Of a stretch of DNA of 64,000 nucleotides, positions 30,392-36,530 are shown in pieces. The notes below the pieces were generated by a model that saw only the letters and a program-made list of their open reading frames with translations, did not search any database and was not told the origin of the DNA. Each line of letters opens with the position of its first letter. Positions within the stretch are counted from its first letter, which is position 1. Position numbers and translations under genes: made by a program. The stretch covers positions 1,856,001-1,920,000 of the forward strand of contig OY762428.1 in assembly GCA_963665665.1 (NCBI GenBank). Reading direction: 5' to 3'. The DNA is from Candidatus Kapaibacterium sp. (GTDB lineage: Bacteria > Bacteroidota > Ignavibacteria > Kapaibacteriales > UBA2268).

Positions 30392-31255
30392 ATGAATAAA
30401 AAAATCATGGAAGTTGTAAAAGATACATTTAGCATTGAAGGCAGTAGTGGCAGAAATATTGATGCCGATATAAGGTTTCCGGACGGGAAGGAAAAATATC
30501 CCTGCCTTATAATTCTGCATGGCTTTAAGGCTCATAAGGACTGGGGCTTTTTTCCCTATATTTCCTCAGAAATGGGAACTCAGGGGTTTATTACAATCAC
30601 TATCAACTTCAGCCATAATGGAATTCTCGATCCGGAAAAAAATATTCTCGACACAGAAGTGTTTGCCAATAATTCTGTTTCCAGGGAAATTGAGGATATT
30701 TATATCCTGCTGAAAGAATTAAAATCAAATAGAATCGTTGACTGCCATACTGATAAAAACTGGGACGGCAGAATATTTCTGCTCGGGCATTCAATGGGCG
30801 GAGCCATATCAATTCTTACTGCATCTGAAAGAAATGATATTGAAGCTGTTTGCCTGTGGGGAACTATCGCAAAATTCAACCGCTACACCAAGAGGCAGAG
30901 GGATTTATGGAAAAATGCCGGATTCATAGAGTTTGAAAATACTTCCACAGGACAGGTTTTAAAGCTTTATGCTTCATTCCTTGAAGACCTGGAAAAACAT
31001 GACCGGGAATTCAGCCTGCCGGACAGGATAGCAATGATAAATGCACCGATAATGATCCTTCACGGCAACCAGGATATGACGGTTCCGATAAAAGAAGGGC
31101 AATTGCTAAAAGATTCTGCAGGGGAAAACTGTGAATTACAAATAATTGAAAAAGCCGGGCATGTTTTTGGCGCTGAACACCCATTTGCCGGAACTACAAG
31201 AGCACTTGATTCGTTATTAGATTTGACAAAGAAATTTTTTGACAGATATAAATAA
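30392..31255 (+). CDS. Alpha/beta hydrolase
   Basis: HGFK, GHSMGG nucleophile elbow, HGNQD and GH motifs. Confidence 0.88.
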   Translation: MNKKIMEVVKDTFSIEGSSGRNIDADIRFPDGKEKYPCLIILHGFKAHKDWGFFPYISSEMGTQGFITITINFSHNGILDPEKNILDTEVFANNSVSREIEDIYILLKELKSNRIVDCHTDKNWDGRIFLLGHSMGGAISILTASERNDIEAVCLWGTIAKFNRYTKRQRDLWKNAGFIEFENTSTGQVLKLYASFLEDLEKHDREFSLPDRIAMINAPIMILHGNQDMTVPIKEGQLLKDSAGENCELQIIEKAGHVFGAEHPFAGTTRALDSLLDLTKKFFDRYK

Positions 31256-31668
31256 TGATAGTTAATAAATCCATATTTTCTCTTCTCTTGATTCTGCTAA
31301 TCGGCGGATGTGAACTGATTGTGATCGGCAGCAAAGCCAAACCCGTTGTTGCAATCGACCGTACATCGCCGGTAGGTACGGTTTACCTGTTCAAAACCGA
31401 ACTCGACAGCAATAATGTGGCCGCTGCCACAGAGATACTTGCACGCCCCAACGGCACGGAATATCTTGCTCTGGAGCAGTACGAACTCTACAATGAAGTG
31501 GCTCGTATCGGACGTATTATCCGCGACCTGCCCGTAACTGACGTTAAAACTGATTCCCTGAAGCCTGATCTTTACAGGGTTAATATTGAATTTGATTATA
31601 TCCGCCCCATGAAATTTTCCACCCTTCTGATCAATAATGACTGGTACATTGTTCAATACGAGGAGTAA
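31255..31668 (+). CDS. Hypothetical lipoprotein
   Basis: Lipobox IGGC; translationally coupled to the upstream gene. Confidence 0.65.
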   Translation: MIVNKSIFSLLLILLIGGCELIVIGSKAKPVVAIDRTSPVGTVYLFKTELDSNNVAAATEILARPNGTEYLALEQYELYNEVARIGRIIRDLPVTDVKTDSLKPDLYRVNIEFDYIRPMKFSTLLINNDWYIVQYEE

Positions 31669-31805
31669 GGGATAAAATATTAATGCGGAAATTGATGTTT
31701 ATTAATTACCCAATATTCTTTCTTTTTGAAGATTCAATTTGCTTGATAAGTTTATCAAAATCACTTTCAAACAAAATAAAACTAATAAAAAAACAGCTCT
31801 TAATA

Positions 31806-32672
31806 TTATTTATCATCAAATACTGGTTTGACATTATTATTGATAATATAATGTTCGATTTCTTCAATTTCATCCAAAATCAGATACTTAATACCTGAAA
31901 AATTTCTGATTTCATTCCATAAAGAATGATTTTTCTCATTAACTGATAATGGTTCGTCGCCTATTATAAAATGGTTATTATTGTTATTATTATTAACGAA
32001 GTTTACAAAATTGAAATATGAATTAAAATCTGCTTTTAAGTAAAAGAATTGTTTATTGAAATCAAAAAACTGACCGGAAATATAATTGCCATTTTTACCG
32101 AAAATATTTATAGTATCAGGAAGAACTGCTTTTTTATTAGCGATTTCAGGAATAGAGATTTTATCAATTTCAATATCCAGATTTACTTTTTTACTAATTT
32201 TAGCATACAACTTATCTCGTGCGAGAACCAACGAATTAAAGGAGTTATCATCAGGCTTCAGTTCATTAGCCGTTGAAATATATTTTTCGAATAGGGACTT
32301 AAAATTATCTGCATTTGTTTCAATAGATATTTCGCTTGGTTTAGAAAAAGTGATTAGGTTATTGCTATAGGAATGAAGATAATTCAAATATTTCTCGGAA
32401 TAAGAGAAATAATATCCGGGAGATTTTTTAACCAATACCTCATCATTATTTATTTCATTCTGAAATCGTTTAATATCTTTATTAATCCCATTAAGATAGT
32501 TTCTTAAAAATTTAACGCTGTCATTTGGAATCAGTTTATTAAGAAAGCTTAATTTTTCAGGAGAATATGAGAAGAACATATTCTTATTATCAACCATCAA
32601 CAAGGCAATACTCACCTGCTCGTTTATAACGGGCCGGATGGGAGTAAACATTATAGAATAATAACTTTTCAT
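31806..32672 (-). CDS. DUF3037-like protein, partner of the HipA-like kinase
   Basis: N-terminus YYSIMFTPIRPVINEQVSIALL resembles DUF3037; starts 2 nt after the kinase stop; very AT-rich. Confidence 0.55.
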   Translation of the reverse strand: MKSYYSIMFTPIRPVINEQVSIALLMVDNKNMFFSYSPEKLSFLNKLIPNDSVKFLRNYLNGINKDIKRFQNEINNDEVLVKKSPGYYFSYSEKYLNYLHSYSNNLITFSKPSEISIETNADNFKSLFEKYISTANELKPDDNSFNSLVLARDKLYAKISKKVNLDIEIDKISIPEIANKKAVLPDTINIFGKNGNYISGQFFDFNKQFFYLKADFNSYFNFVNFVNNNNNNNHFIIGDEPLSVNEKNHSLWNEIRNFSGIKYLILDEIEEIEHYIINNNVKPVFDDK

Positions 32673-32674
32673 CT

Positions 32675-33499
32675 TTATTGCCTTAAATAGTAATAATAAT
32701 GTAATTCAAATGCCTTTTTTACTTTATCTAACCAATCCTCGTTGAAAAGGTTTCCTATTAAAAAATCACGTTTCAGATCAATATCTATTTCCCAATCTGA
32801 TGGTATTATTTGTAATAATCTCTCAAGAGAGTTCTTACAATCATCTACAAAGATCGTAAAATTTTCAAATAAATCGAAAATTATTTCATCATGATTAATT
32901 ATTTTTTTCTTGAACAATATTTGGAATAAGTCATGTCTCAAAATTGTATCATTAATAGTTAATTCAATCAAATCTGTATAAGAGTTATTATTAAATATGC
33001 TGCCATGGTCAATTGCATAAAGTCTTGGTTCAGAAGCGGAAGGCTTGAACAACATATTCGGATTATTGTATGTTCTGTCTTCATTTCCAATCCAAATATC
33101 AAATAAAGCTATTTTTAATAAATCCCAAAAATTTATCTTTCTAAGAATTTCTTTTCTTATCAGATTGAAATTTAAATCAATTTCCTTAGTATCCTTCATG
33201 TAATAAGAGGCAAAGCAAGTTTTCGAAAACCACCGGGGCTGCATATCATTTTCAATTGCAAATCTATTAAGGTATTCATTGCCAGGCGAAATAAATGCAA
33301 AATCCGGCGTTGGGATTTTCCAGAATTCAAGAAATGAAGATGCTATATACTCATTGAATGGACTCGTTGATGAAGGATAATTATGCTTACATACATAATC
33401 ATTCAGATCATTACAGGTTACGAGTAAAGGCTTATTGCCGGTATCAAAAACCTTTGCCGGCTCTGTGATTACTGATAAATATCTAATTGGCATATTCAT
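32675..33499 (-). CDS. HipA-like (HipA_2 type) kinase
   Basis: YVCK, NEYIAS, FDIWIGNEDR..N.N and AIDHG catalytic motifs. Confidence 0.8.
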   Translation of the reverse strand: MNMPIRYLSVITEPAKVFDTGNKPLLVTCNDLNDYVCKHNYPSSTSPFNEYIASSFLEFWKIPTPDFAFISPGNEYLNRFAIENDMQPRWFSKTCFASYYMKDTKEIDLNFNLIRKEILRKINFWDLLKIALFDIWIGNEDRTYNNPNMLFKPSASEPRLYAIDHGSIFNNNSYTDLIELTINDTILRHDLFQILFKKKIINHDEIIFDLFENFTIFVDDCKNSLERLLQIIPSDWEIDIDLKRDFLIGNLFNEDWLDKVKKAFELHYYYYLRQ

Positions 33500-33516
33500 A
33501 CTTTTTTATCCATCCC

Positions 33517-33660
33517 TCACCCCTCCACTATCTTTATTTCGTCTTCGGTCAGGTTGTTGAGCTTATAGACGAGCCGGTCTATTTGCTTATCGGTTATGGC
33601 TATCTGCTTTTGCAGTATTTTCTTTTCCCGGCTAAAGGACTGATAATAGTAGTTGTTCAT
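33517..33660 (-). pseudogene. 47-aa ORF equal to the C-terminal tail of a type IIG (Eco57I/TaqI-C-like) R-M enzyme
   Basis: Manual translation: MNNYYYQSFSREKKILQKQIAITDKQIDRLVYKLNNLTEDEIKIVEG*. Confidence 0.65.
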
Positions 33661-33678
33661 AGTTTTTTTCAAAAATCC

Positions 33679-34803
33679 TTAATCGTTTAAGAAATTTATA
33701 AATTCCCTGAGTGAACTTTGCAGTACTTCCCTGGGAATTAGTTCCCGTTCGTATTTTGCTATCATGGTCGGGCTCATACTACGGTTCAACGCGTATTTTA
33801 CAACCTCCCTGTTTGTTTCTTTGCAAAGCAGTATGCCAATCGAAGGATTTTCGTTGCTGCGTTTAACATCATTATCGAGAGCTTCGAGATAAAATTCCAG
33901 CTGCCCCATAAATGCAGGCTCGAATTCATCTGTTTTCAATTCTAAGGCCACCAGGCAATGCAAAGCCCTGTGAAAAAACAATAAATCAATTTTAAATGTT
34001 TTGCTGCCTACCTGAACCGGATATTCCTGCCCCACAAACAGAAAATCTTTGCCAAGTTCAAGTACAAAATCCTTCATGTTTTCCAGGATACTTTTTTGCA
34101 GACGTTTTTCGCTGTGTTTTTGCGGGAGTCCTAAAAAATCAAGATAAGCAACATCCTTGAACATATAATTCGAGCCGGGGTATTTTTTTTGCATTCCGGC
34201 AGACTGAATATTTTCAGATTTTATTATATGGTTATATGTATTGGTTTTAATAGCTCGCCTTAGCTCTTTTACCTCGAGCCGCTCATGATTTGCATACAGG
34301 ATATAGAACAGGCGTTCTCCGTTTGTCCGGCAGCAGTTCAGAATTTCCACATGGCTTGTCCAGTTAATTTTGCCAAGAATAGACGGGAAATTCTCAGGCT
34401 TATAAATTTGTGCAGTTTCAAACTGCACAATTTCACCGGGCTTATTATCATCAGATTCTATTTGTGCAGTTTCCGGCTGCACAATTGCGGCTTTGTATTT
34501 CGTATTGCCGGCCAATTCAATAAATTCATGCGAGGAATAGGTATCGAAAAAACGAACCATATTGTAAATATTACGGCGGCTATAGCCTTTAAGCCCGGGG
34601 TCTTTAGTTCGCAGGTATTCCGACAGTTCCGTAACCACTTTGCTGCCCCATTCACTGCTTTGCAGTTTTGTAGAAACATATTGACCGACGTTCCAGCATA
34701 TAAGCAGGCTTTCGTCGTTTACTGTTTTCAAAGCCCGCGACCGGTGTAGATTAATTATACCGCGGATATGCTCGAAACGGCTGTCTCTTTTATCTGATTT
34801 CAT
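33679..34803 (-). CDS. YhcG/DUF1016 family PD-(D/E)XK nuclease
   Basis: WGSKVV..LS..L, YSRRNI, LELGKDF.FVG.EY, IDLLFFHR, ELK, GQL.FYL and IGILLC motifs. Confidence 0.92.
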   Translation of the reverse strand: MKSDKRDSRFEHIRGIINLHRSRALKTVNDESLLICWNVGQYVSTKLQSSEWGSKVVTELSEYLRTKDPGLKGYSRRNIYNMVRFFDTYSSHEFIELAGNTKYKAAIVQPETAQIESDDNKPGEIVQFETAQIYKPENFPSILGKINWTSHVEILNCCRTNGERLFYILYANHERLEVKELRRAIKTNTYNHIIKSENIQSAGMQKKYPGSNYMFKDVAYLDFLGLPQKHSEKRLQKSILENMKDFVLELGKDFLFVGQEYPVQVGSKTFKIDLLFFHRALHCLVALELKTDEFEPAFMGQLEFYLEALDNDVKRSNENPSIGILLCKETNREVVKYALNRSMSPTMIAKYERELIPREVLQSSLREFINFLND

Positions 34804-35265: not shown

Positions 35266-35298
35266 AAGCCTTTGTAAAATATTTATTTACAAAGGCTT
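35266..35298. terminator. Inverted repeat just downstream of the CCA-bearing tRNA 3' copy
   Basis: AAGCCTTTGTAAA-N7-TTTACAAAGGCTT. Confidence 0.6.
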
Positions 35299-35308
35299 TT
35301 ATTTTATC

Positions 35309-35388
35309 TGGCGGAGAAGGTGGGATTCGAACCCACGATAGCGCTTAACACACTATGTCCCGATTGCATCGGGATGCCTTCAGCCACT
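35309..35388 (-). pseudogene. tRNA-Ser 3' fragment (D-loop to CCA) with substituted anticodon arm
   Basis: Identical to the tRNA from AGTGGCTGAAGGCA to TCTCCG except for the 17-nt ASL (35358-35374); ends in CCA. Confidence 0.88.
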
Positions 35389-35625
35389 ATTTATCAGTTC
35401 CTTAATATAACTTCTACTTTTCATTTTTTTGATTTTTAATTCATATACCACCGCTTCTGAGCGGCTTTCAAACATCTTTGAATAAACTAATTTCCATGGA
35501 CGGTATGGCTTTGTTGATTTTACAGAGCCGGAATTATGTTTCTCGACCCTTTGCTCAATATTTTCAGTCGATCCAACATAGTAACGGCCTGTACTCAGGC
35601 TTTGTAGTATATAAGTGTAAAACAT
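35380..35625 (-). CDS. Small standalone GIY-YIG nuclease, copy 1 (UPF0213/SLX1-like)
   Basis: YTYIL...YYVGST...R..HN.G...T..YRPWKLVY...A...E..IKK motif pattern. Confidence 0.9.
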   Translation of the reverse strand: MFYTYILQSLSTGRYYVGSTENIEQRVEKHNSGSVKSTKPYRPWKLVYSKMFESRSEAVVYELKIKKMKSRSYIKELINSG

Positions 35626-35646
35626 TGAAAATCCTCACCATATATG

Positions 35647-35672
35647 AAAAAAGGGAACCTGTAGTTCCCTTT
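35647..35672 (-). terminator. Intrinsic terminator between the tRNA 3' copy and GIY-YIG copy 1
   Basis: Minus strand reads AAAGGGAAC-TACAG-GTTCCCTTTTTT. Confidence 0.7.
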
Positions 35673-35678
35673 ATCCTG

Positions 35679-35755
35679 CGGAGAAGGTGGGATTCGAACC
35701 CACGATAGCGCTTAACACACTATGTCCCGATTGCATCGGGATGCCTTCAGCCACT
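35679..35755 (-). pseudogene. tRNA-Ser 3' fragment with substituted anticodon arm (no CCA)
   Basis: Same as 35312-35388; hairpin at 35725-35741. Confidence 0.88.
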
Positions 35756-35992
35756 ATTTATCAGTTCCTTAATATAACTTCTACTTTTCATTTTTTTGAT
35801 TTTTAATTCATATACCACCGCTTCTGAGCGGCTTTCAAACATCTTTGAATAAACTAATTTCCATGGACGGTATGGCTTTGTTGATTTTACAGAGCCGGAA
35901 TTATGTTTCTCGACCCTTTGCTCAATATTTTCAGTCGATCCAACATAGTAACGGCCTGTACTCAGGCTTTGTAGTATATAAGTGTAAAACAT
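35747..35992 (-). CDS. Small standalone GIY-YIG nuclease, copy 2
   Basis: Same 81-aa protein as copy 1. Confidence 0.9.
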   Translation of the reverse strand: MFYTYILQSLSTGRYYVGSTENIEQRVEKHNSGSVKSTKPYRPWKLVYSKMFESRSEAVVYELKIKKMKSRSYIKELINSG

Positions 35993-36013
35993 TGAAAATC
36001 CTCACCATATATG

Positions 36014-36039
36014 AAAAAAGGGAACCTGTAGTTCCCTTT
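36014..36039 (-). terminator. Intrinsic terminator directly after the intact tRNA-Ser
   Basis: Same hairpin and U-tract as 35647-35672. Confidence 0.7.
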
Positions 36040-36045
36040 ATCCTG

Positions 36046-36135
36046 CGGAGAAGGTGGGATTCGAACCCACGATAGCGCTTAACACACTATGCTGGTTTAG
36101 CAAACCAGTGCCTTCAGCCACTCGGCCACCTCTCC
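36046..36135 (-). tRNA. tRNA-Ser(GCT), intact; CCA not encoded
   Basis: GGAGAGG acceptor, TGGCCGAGTGGCTGAAGGC D-arm, CTGGT-TTGCTAA-ACCAG anticodon arm, long variable arm, GGTTCGAATCC T-loop and G discriminator. Confidence 0.95.
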
Positions 36136-36471
36136 GTTTTTCAAATTTTTATCGCCAAGTGTTTTTTTCACTATGTCCCGATTGCATCGGGATGCCTTCA
36201 GCCACTCGGCCACCTCTCCGTTTTTCAAATTTTTATCGCCAAGTGTTTTTTTCACTATGTCCCGATTGCATCGGGATGCCTTCAGCCACTCGGCCACCTC
36301 TCCGTTTTTCAAATTTTTATCGCCAAGTGTTTTTTTCACTATGTCCCGATTGCATCGGGATGCCTTCAGCCACTCGGCCACCTCTCCGTTTTTCAAATTT
36401 TTATCGCCAAGTGTTTTTTTCACTATGTCCCGATTGCATCGGGATGCCTTCAGCCACTCGGCCACCTCTCC
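36136..36471 (-). repeat. Four 84-bp tandem units, each a tRNA-Ser 5' part (51 nt, substituted anticodon arm) plus a constant 33-nt linker
   Basis: tRNA-derived blocks at 36169, 36253, 36337 and 36421 are in register with the intact tRNA (36085). Confidence 0.93.
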
Positions 36472-36501
36472 GTTCTGACTGATTGTATCAATCAGAGAGT
36501 A

Positions 36502-36530
36502 CAAATATACAACTAATTTATAATTTCAAA
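36502..36530 (-). promoter_or_regulatory. Probable tRNA-locus promoter (TTTG...TATATTTG)
   Basis: TAnnTTTG at 36502-36509, 30 nt upstream of the first 5' copy. The spacing to TTTG (17 nt) is slightly short. Confidence 0.55.

Follow-up and report, generated by a model that had tools for sequence, protein, structure and literature searches.

A GIY-YIG nuclease gene among hairpin-bearing tRNA pieces at a bacterial tRNA-Ser locus: a probable SegB-like selfish element of chromosomal tRNA genes

We have analyzed a locus in a 64,000-nucleotide stretch (the window) of the chromosome of Candidatus Kapaibacterium sp. (GenBank assembly GCA_963665665.1, contig OY762428.1, positions 1,856,001 to 1,920,000), where the gene for tRNA-Ser(GCT) stands among partial copies of itself and two copies of a gene for an 81-residue protein of the GIY-YIG superfamily. 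The locus is one instance of a widespread group of small elements at the tRNA genes of bacterial chromosomes. The core of these elements is an open reading frame (ORF) for a protein of about 80 residues, made of a GIY-YIG domain only; the ORF lies tight against a functional tRNA gene and in the same orientation, and its flanks are partial copies of that tRNA in which a short hairpin with a conserved TCCCG/CGGGA base stands in for one arm, in most cases the anticodon arm. By analogy with SegB, a homing endonuclease of phage T4, the locus is probably a chromosomal selfish element that persists and multiplies through homologous recombination between the tRNA-derived repeats, stimulated by the nuclease. 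We regard a selfish element amplifying by recombination as the best reading because homologues of the protein recur beside tRNA genes and hairpin-bearing tRNA fragments, and because tandem amplification is recurrent. The element is best filed as a free-standing, homing-endonuclease-like GIY-YIG element of tRNA genes.

Coordinates of the locus are those of the window, all its features lie on the minus strand, and copy numbers are as in the assembly, a single closed contig of 5,458,198 bp. In the direction of transcription the locus opens with four identical 84-bp units (36136–36471; Tandem Repeats Finder over 36109–36474: period 84 bp, 4.4 copies, 100% matches). Each is composed of positions 1–27 of tRNA-Ser, a 17-nt hairpin in the place of the anticodon arm (copies at 36428–36444, 36344–36360, 36260–36276 and 36176–36192), 7 variable-arm nucleotides and a spacer of 33 nt not derived from tRNA. 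The intact tRNA-Ser(GCT), the genome's sole copy, comes next (36045–36135; called by ARAGORN, and by Rfam as tRNA at 59.7 bits, the gathering score being 29). Then follow two 367-bp units, 99% identical (Tandem Repeats Finder over 35303–36091: period 367 bp, 2.1 copies, 99% matches), with the order terminator-like hairpin, 81-residue ORF, 3′ tRNA piece. In the first of them a terminator-like hairpin (36017–36039) separates the tRNA from the ORF (35747–35992), and the 3′ piece (35678–35755) matches tRNA positions 14–91 with 86% identity, the hairpin at 35725–35741 standing in place of the anticodon arm. In the second the corresponding parts lie at 35650–35672, 35380–35625 and 35309–35388 (hairpin at 35358–35374), the 3′ piece likewise covers tRNA positions 14–91, and the encoded protein is identical. 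The TGA stop codon of each ORF falls within the D-loop-derived start of the 3′ piece that follows. The second piece leads into an encoded CCA and a 3′ flank unlike the repeat unit, and a terminal terminator-like hairpin of 13 pairs (35266–35298) ends the locus. An earlier description of this DNA, made from its letters alone (hereafter the sequence-only reading), had listed the same parts, from the 5′ pieces to the CCA and closing hairpin, and the repeat, tRNA, ORF, Pfam and terminator calls all agree with it. It had also placed a promoter at the head of the locus, and here the outcome is divided: a TAnnTTTG motif, found by reading at 36502–36509, about 30 nt 5′ of the first piece, is a candidate for what we take to be the Bacteroidota −7 element, and a sigma-70 promoter scan of the locus found nothing at the expected position. 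A motif of this type also lies 5′ of tRNA-Ser(GCT) in relatives (nine inspected).

The hairpin, TCCCGATGCAATCGGGA, is 17 nt long with a perfect 7-bp stem and a 3-nt loop, and is the same in all six tRNA pieces. It has six copies in the 5.46-Mb genome, every one at the tRNA-Ser(GCT) locus (a control pattern has none), and the only two copies of the ORF in the genome are also there. A 38-nt core that the sequence-only reading had described as shared by the six pieces is 100% identical between the four 5′ pieces and the 3′ pieces. The pieces each lack one acceptor strand, and at this locus the Rfam tRNA model is matched by the genuine tRNA-Ser(GCT) alone; the best Rfam match of the 3′ pieces reaches only 21.2 bits, to the tRNA-Sec model, with a cut-off of 47. 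ARAGORN labels both 3′ pieces tRNA-Cys(GCA) (35309–35401 and 35678–35768). We consider this call accidental, because the “loop” of the underlying 5-bp stem reading is 7 nt long here and 8 and 9 nt in two relatives. A Ser-bodied tRNA that reads Cys codons, as a missense suppressor would, is rejected on the grounds that the pieces, which are incomplete, do not pass the tRNA model and that the 7-nt “loop” is peculiar to the source genome; a normal tRNA-Cys(GCA) is present elsewhere in that genome.

The 81-residue protein is a GIY-YIG superfamily member by its sequence matches to Pfam and to the Protein Data Bank, which settle the fold. The Pfam GIY-YIG model (PF01541) matches residues 1–71 with E 8.5e-18 and 64.9 bits (cut-off 22.6), and this stretch is the nuclease domain alone, with no separate DNA-binding domain in the protein. 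The nearest solved structures are UPF0213 proteins (1zg2, E 2e-8; 1ywl, E 1.6e-6), followed by SLX1 (E about 5e-3). In NCBIfam no model scores above its cut-off, and public annotations of relatives say only “GIY-YIG nuclease family protein” and “Putative endonuclease”. Conserved in GIY-YIG domains are the Tyr of the GIY motif, the Tyr-x-Gly of the YIG motif, an Arg and a metal-binding Glu. Across 79 aligned relatives, Y5, Y16, G18, E62 and K66 are invariant (79/79), and R26 and H30 are kept in 78 and 77. The protein, as judged from this alignment, retains the residues expected of an active GIY-YIG domain, and we predict it to be a nuclease. Ratios of nonsynonymous to synonymous substitution (dN/dS) of 0.05–0.38 were obtained in the unsaturated pairs; many other pairs were left out, being saturated or having failed through an undefined dS or an N in the sequence. 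These values indicate that the protein is under purifying selection.

Relatives of the protein are numerous. A scan of one genome per species gave at least 507, and the counts over 80 that follow refer to the best 80 loci, whose hosts belong to Bacteroidota, Poribacteria, candidate-phyla bacteria, Desulfobacterota, Chloroflexota, Acidobacteriota and others. Counting as adjacent a co-oriented ARAGORN tRNA that either stands upstream of the ORF by no more than 200 nt or directly adjoins its stop codon, 67 of the 80 loci are tRNA-adjacent, and 59 of the 64 with enough flank; the expectation by chance is about 0.5%, as estimated from 52 tRNA calls in 5.46 Mb. By the thresholds used, seven loci have neither tRNA nor hairpin. 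Four of these are cut by a nearby contig end (L063, L067, L068 and L093), and in another (L120) a tRNA lies just beyond the span searched. The adjacent tRNAs comprise 26 anticodon types, and GIY-YIG ORFs stand in tandem at 14 of the 80 loci. Two layouts recur: either a real tRNA is followed by the ORF and a 3′ piece, as in the window, or a 5′ piece is followed by the ORF and a real tRNA. In both, the ORF reaches into the tRNA or piece downstream and stops within roughly its first 25 nt. The window's three-part layout is also found at one Acidobacteriota and one Ignavibacteria locus. A second, independent draw of 401 genomes from the window's phylum yielded profile matches at E ≤ 1e-12 in 214, of which the weaker ones may not all belong to the tRNA-linked subfamily; among its best 28 loci, 22 are tRNA-adjacent, 18 have the hairpin and nine have tandem ORFs. 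Thus, the pairing of GIY-YIG genes with tRNA genes and hairpin-replaced tRNA fragments, which the sequence-only reading had proposed as a check, holds across many phyla.

The hairpin is conserved along with the gene. Within 130 nt of the ORF, a perfect hairpin of the form YCCCG..CGGGR or TCCG..CGGA is found at 52 of the 80 loci, and the strict form TCCCG..CGGGA at 38 (a related pattern has a background of 14 matches in 193 kb). The stem's 5-bp base does not vary, covariation is seen in the pairs that come next (A-T, C-G, G-C, T-A), and the loop sequence is unconstrained. Its position in the tRNA frame varies: it replaces the anticodon arm or the T arm, or is inserted in the D arm. Partial tRNA copies were sought through the 10-nt flanks of the anticodon arm, which gave 169 candidates in 72 of 109 sequences; 95 of them contain the core hairpin, 25 another perfect hairpin and two a native-like anticodon arm, and 47 have neither hairpin nor native-like arm, with about 38 chance matches expected.

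Tandem amplification has occurred repeatedly. On one complete chromosome eight diverged 343-bp units follow tRNA-Pro(TGG), one of the ORFs with a stop codon and some of the hairpins broken; another genome carries 299-bp units in an array at least 13 long (L213; G153:C2:364300-369156); and on a Poribacteria chromosome 11 ORF-less pseudo-tRNA units of 107 bp precede the GIY-YIG gene. All three arrays are in complete or near-complete genomes. Three independent arrays or single insertions (L164/L175 in G077, L053 and L064) end rightward in the truncated first 40–55 nt of a GIY-YIG ORF and not where the tRNA piece ends. In the L213 array the units are identical except for small indels in the hairpin, a variation that may be genuine hypervariability or base-calling error at a modified motif. 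The protein tree (84 columns, five starred branches of 76) is poorly resolved and no order of events is drawn from it. Over this weakly resolved tree the label of the adjacent tRNA changes 41 times. Supported clades share one tRNA type, for example Pro-CGG in Poribacteria and Ala-GGC in Acidobacteriota, and a clade with 99% support in the Shimodaira–Hasegawa-like approximate likelihood-ratio test (SH-aLRT) joins Spirochaetota and Desulfobulbaceae copies, both at tRNA-Asn(GTT).

Within the family of the source organism the distribution is patchy. In two genera tRNA-Ser(GCT) is followed by two tandem units of spacer, GIY-YIG gene and hairpin-bearing 3′ piece; their proteins are 53–56% identical to that of the window, their hairpins share the base with the window's and differ in the loops, and in one of the two the T arm is also replaced by a hairpin. 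Three further relatives have at least one hairpin-bearing 5′ piece upstream of tRNA-Ser(GCT), with remnants of the native anticodon loop in the hairpin loops; a GIY-YIG ORF was undetected in two of these (genomes 81–83% complete), and in the third a weaker match lies at another place in the genome. Six other relatives inspected have a plain tRNA-Ser(GCT), so that at one and the same site the nuclease gene is present in the source genome and the two related genera and absent from these six. In a 41-genome sample of relatives, matches at E ≤ 1e-5 were obtained in five of 24 same-family genomes, two of the five being close. Comparison with empty sites in the nearest relatives did not define the borders of the insertion, because the flanking genes differ from those of the source genome. 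Of ten distant GIY-YIG loci in relatives (33–41% identity), only one has a tRNA in the fetched flank; the tRNA link is therefore a trait of the window's subfamily and not of UPF0213 overall.

How might such an element be kept and amplified? The sequences show a nuclease gene that selection maintains beside tRNA genes, that is present in some relatives and absent from others, that has switched tRNA hosts over long times and that multiplies in tandem, with disabled tRNA copies in its company. By analogy with SegB, the nuclease would break DNA in or near tRNA genes. The breaks would be repaired by homologous recombination with the tRNA-derived repeats as homology arms, and the repair would copy the ORF, together with a disabled tRNA piece, into the tRNA locus. 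Out-of-register repair would expand tandem arrays, in the window to two ORF units and four ORF-less 5′ units. The tRNA copy that the cell needs would retain its native anticodon arm, and the spare copies would bear the hairpin. A single crossover or conversion on either side of the hairpin would account for both layouts and would also fit the differing 3′ flanks of the first and last copies in the window. The hairpin itself could confer immunity to cutting, serve in protein binding, or act as an RNA or single-stranded DNA element.

Hairpins of this kind are also found in the source genome away from any GIY-YIG gene. A looser pattern (TCCCGA, 3–9 nt, TCGGGA) has 50 copies in the genome, with two for a control; six are those at the tRNA-Ser(GCT) locus, about 35 belong to a dispersed repeat, and two and four lie in the rRNA operons. 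In both operons tRNA-Ala(TGC) is directly followed by tandem 41-bp units, two in one and four in the other (C1:2679069-2679150 and 3515055-3515218), each unit being the 3′ part of tRNA-Ala with the T arm swapped for a TCCCGAT..ATCGGGA hairpin. No GIY-YIG gene is nearby, and the copy number is unequal between the operons. The dispersed repeat, which has no match in Rfam, was considered as tRNA-derived and rejected as such, its best alignment score being equalled by 164 of 200 shuffles. Hairpin repeats with different flanks are found in two relatives, G005 (77 hairpins) and G023 (35). A third array of tRNA pieces lies at a tRNA-Val(TAC)/tRNA-Leu(CAA) locus (C1:1029450-1031900) with three Val and two Leu genes and no GIY-YIG gene; there, partial 3′ pieces of tRNA-Val, of which BLAST finds at least 11 and reading by eye about 13, are each trailed by one of several terminator-like modules. 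Unchanged 43–45-nt copies of the 3′ ends of tRNA-Asn, tRNA-Thr and tRNA-Arg, 16–26 kb from the genes (C1:1430561, 1519324 and 4044865), are the usual mark of integrated islands.

Several observations count against a SegB-like selfish element. The candidate nuclease is only 81 residues long and has no DNA-binding domain with which to find a site. A functional tRNA with its native arm directly adjoins the nuclease gene, and the model does not account for how self-cutting would be avoided or tolerated. The base of the hairpin is kept across phyla while the loops drift, which simple immunity does not account for, and some lineages use other hairpins. Both rRNA operons, and relatives in which no GIY-YIG gene was found, have hairpin-bearing tRNA pieces with no such gene beside them, and the dispersed repeat of about 80 nt and 35 copies shares the hairpin (TCCCGAC..GTCGGGA), together with a second one (for example at C1:92611, 155630 and 1351263). 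On the sense strand of the hairpins G.T mismatches outnumber A.C mismatches by 14 to 4 in a strict count (p ~0.03) and by 44 to 14 in a loose one, the rows being related rather than independent and base composition leaning slightly the same way; this excess hints that the hairpin may act single-stranded, as RNA or single-stranded DNA of the sense strand. The high prevalence of the gene (214 of 401 genomes) and the purifying selection would also fit a gene of benefit to its host. Finally, the family is nearly absent from phages (two weak matches in 50,697 records) and gave no match among 72,556 plasmids, which leaves no vehicle for horizontal spread in sight; on the same figures, the element as phage or plasmid cargo is rejected. 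The sequence-only reading had proposed a nuclease-driven selfish element that amplifies by break repair: the recurrence of tandem amplification and the experimental precedent of SegB in phage T6 argue for it, and the hairpin pieces without an adjacent GIY-YIG gene argue against it. Its further proposal, that the nuclease would target the DNA of the anticodon hairpin and mark used sites with its own hairpin, is not supported here; the hairpin also takes the place of T arms and is inserted in D arms.

The SegB-like model leaves unexplained the finding of a site by an 81-residue domain, the survival of the neighboring functional tRNA, the conservation of the hairpin base, the ORF-less arrays of the rRNA operons, the truncated ORF starts of three arrays and the pairing between spacer and D arm. 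Because of this, two other readings stay alive. The first, which we hold to be unlikely but to have a real chance, takes the conserved TCCCG/CGGGA hairpin to be the working partner of the 80-residue nuclease, the two forming a minimal hairpin-directed mobile system of its own kind. A structure-specific GIY-YIG domain would then recognize a single-stranded hairpin, of RNA or DNA, inside a tRNA-shaped scaffold; the near-universal sequences of the tRNA D arm and T arm would provide portable homology into almost any tRNA gene of almost any bacterium; and the ORF-less pieces of the rRNA operons and 5′ arrays would be non-autonomous riders moved in trans.

The second, more doubtful than a hairpin-directed mobile system, moves the function to the level of RNA: the cell would produce the hairpin-bearing pieces either as RNAs resembling tRNA or as structured termini of the GIY-YIG mRNA, and they would work with or for the protein. 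They could be processing or stability signals in a transcript from the tRNA promoter, an autoregulatory site, or decoys or guides, and the arrays could be selected for RNA dosage. The sequence-only reading had already offered tRNA-mimic RNAs, as decoys or guides, for an alternative. All parts of the locus run in one direction behind a single promoter-like motif, which would place the pieces in a common transcript; on each side of the ORF there is always a tRNA or a tRNA-like piece; hairpin pairing is preserved through covariation while the loops drift; and the sense-strand surplus of G.T mismatches relative to A.C ones (14 to 4 and 44 to 14) points the same way. So does folding. One 84-bp unit of the array at 36136–36471 folds as a long hairpin (z −3.64), the 5′-piece units of three out of four genomes (the window, L133:1329-1399, L141:1592-1669 and L145:787-859) fold better than shuffles (z −3.6, −3.4 and −2.8, and +0.4 in the fourth), and in the folded unit the D-arm region pairs with the spacer, the TCCCG hairpin standing at the tip. 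The pairing partner in the spacer shifts along with the local D-arm sequence, and the 5′-piece units end in a T- or A-rich tail. Against a role as RNA, however, the pieces are short of one acceptor strand and do not pass the tRNA model, arrays hold decaying copies with broken hairpins and an ORF with a stop codon, the position of the hairpin varies between the anticodon, T and D arms, and we know of no RNA-guided mode for a GIY-YIG domain of 81 residues.

It is quite unlikely, in our judgment, that the element is a domesticated, host-beneficial system rather than a selfish one, be it a “genomic accordion” for tRNA dosage, a protection from integrating elements or a device for tRNA-locus repair. 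Such a system would agree with profile matches in 214 of 401 genomes of the phylum, with dN/dS values of 0.05–0.38 and with the retention of one tRNA type by supported clades within a taxon (Pro-CGG in Poribacteria, Ala-GGC in Acidobacteriota), which fits vertical inheritance; amplification driven by SegB is also reported to benefit its phage (PMC13096335). However, what is amplified here are disabled pieces and the nuclease gene, not functional tRNA; within the window's family the gene is patchy (5 of 24 genomes at E ≤ 1e-5, two of them close) and other relatives have plain tRNA-Ser(GCT) sites; and the protein matches no known defense family. A known anti-phage defense system was also considered on its own and rejected, the single match in a PADLOC scan of the protein (E 0.0089 over 21 residues) being of no note.

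Alternatively, the GIY-YIG gene would be a mere passenger on tRNA promoters, with the hairpin coming from a separate system of the repetitive extragenic palindrome (REP) type or the arrays from plain replication slippage at tRNA genes that are highly transcribed and structured. This we regard as improbable. It would accommodate the hairpin arrays without a GIY-YIG gene in both rRNA operons (two and four copies of the 41-bp unit), the tRNA-Val array, likewise without one, the roughly 35 dispersed repeats that share the hairpin, and a relative with 77 hairpins and no detectable GIY-YIG gene, in a genome only 81% complete. The hairpin nevertheless travels with the gene across phyla (52/80 and 18/28 loci), and in a relative with only three such hairpins genome-wide the two visible in the fetched locus sit at the GIY-YIG gene. 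The genome's one clear gene for a REP-associated tyrosine transposase (RAYT; Y1 transposase), the better of two PF01797 matches, is flanked by different hairpins, and slippage does not explain how an arm is replaced by a foreign, conserved hairpin. A REP/RAYT origin of the hairpin is rejected on the same evidence, this being the sole clear RAYT-type gene. Mis-assembly of one tRNA and one ORF into false repeats is extremely improbable, given a genome in one closed contig, specific unit junctions, two array flanks that differ, and the same architecture in many independent assemblies, other complete chromosomes included.

A SegB-like selfish element would, if this reading is true, have several consequences. 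A nuclease element of about 300 bp would sit on the tRNA genes of over half the genomes sampled from a major phylum, and it would also be present in members of many other phyla, candidate-phyla bacteria included, as a counterpart on chromosomes of the SegB system of phages. Odd pseudo-tRNA calls would thereby be accounted for, as would tandem repeats at tRNA loci and within rRNA spacers, and biochemistry would gain a very small nuclease with a defined hairpin partner. The finding makes directly testable how a nuclease domain finds its site with no DNA-binding domain. Were the hairpin-directed system the true one, it would be a mobile element of a new class, to be set apart from transposons, from integrase islands and from classical homing endonuclease genes alike. 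In the open literature we found no report linking small bacterial GIY-YIG genes to tRNA pieces or hairpins, subscription journals and supplements lying outside that reach and a prior description being possible; the portions available to us of PMC13700133 and of a preprint (bioRxiv 10.1101/2022.07.05.498093) have no bearing on the link. The sequence-only reading had spoken of a candidate new system, and this can be kept in part: we found no description of the chromosomal family, but GIY-YIG homing endonucleases at tRNA genes are known in phages.

Fourteen ORFs around the locus (24.8–43.8 kb; two of them without a Pfam family) contain no integrase, transposase, reverse transcriptase or cas domain, as the sequence-only reading had stated. 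Downstream lies a group of genes at 31255–34803 (−/+ strands) with a YhcG/DUF1016 PDDEXK nuclease (33679–34803), a HipA_2-like kinase (32675–33499) and two ORFs without a Pfam family (31255–31668 and 31806–32672); the group may be a small accessory island without an integrase.

How does the element compare with known systems? Like the islands carried by integrases, it leaves partial direct repeats of a tRNA gene beside the intact gene. However, no integrase is present in the 14 neighboring ORFs, the repeats are 84–367 bp apart and not kilobases, and they are not unchanged copies, the anticodon arm being replaced; we have thus rejected scars of an integrase island as an explanation. With REP sequences and their RAYT proteins it shares short conserved hairpins that multiply in the genome, sometimes in arrays, but the TCCCG hairpin is tied to tRNA pieces and a GIY-YIG gene and not to a Y1 enzyme. 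The UPF0213 (YhbQ-like) proteins and SLX1 are its best relatives of solved structure and fall in the same single-domain size class; the difference is that the tRNA link belongs to the subfamily of the window, distant GIY-YIG loci having a tRNA in one case out of ten. From free-standing homing endonucleases of the SegB kind the protein differs in having no separate DNA-binding domain for site specificity.

The closest parallel in way of life is SegB. In T4 this GIY-YIG homing endonuclease is encoded in a tRNA cluster, and its 27-bp site, inside tRNA genes, includes a conserved T-arm motif (PMC2330249). In T6, a further report describes tandem amplification of a 718-bp unit of tRNA-Tyr and segB, which requires the nuclease activity of SegB and phage recombination proteins and is advantageous to the phage; segB co-localizes with many tRNA isotypes in phages (PMC13096335). 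Both GIY-YIG genes are wedged between co-oriented tRNA genes, and the packing is equally tight in T6, where the segB ORF starts 46 nt after tRNA-Tyr and ends 5 nt before tRNA-Arg (AP018814.1). That ORF (AP018814.1, 65756–66421; L218:5757-6422) is identified as segB by its position and a Pfam GIY-YIG match, and is annotated as “serine recombinase”. Each is a stand-alone nuclease ORF in the intergenic space beside a conserved target gene (67 of 80 loci are tRNA-adjacent in the window family), and each is associated with many tRNA isotypes. Moreover, the junction of the amplified T6 unit joins the 3′ end of the nuclease gene to the tRNA's 5′ region, and in the window units the 3′ end of the ORF likewise runs into the 5′ part of tRNA-derived sequence. 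There are also clear differences. SegB is a phage protein of 221 residues with a C-terminal part beyond the nuclease domain, whereas the window protein is chromosomal, 81 residues long and the domain alone, and is closer to UPF0213 and SLX1. SegB arrays carry full tRNA genes and are unstable; in the window family the extra copies are partial, with an arm exchanged for a conserved hairpin, and some arrays have had time to diverge. The two proteins align over only 26 residues (E 0.009), and we have therefore rejected orthology with SegB: the likeness is one of lifestyle.

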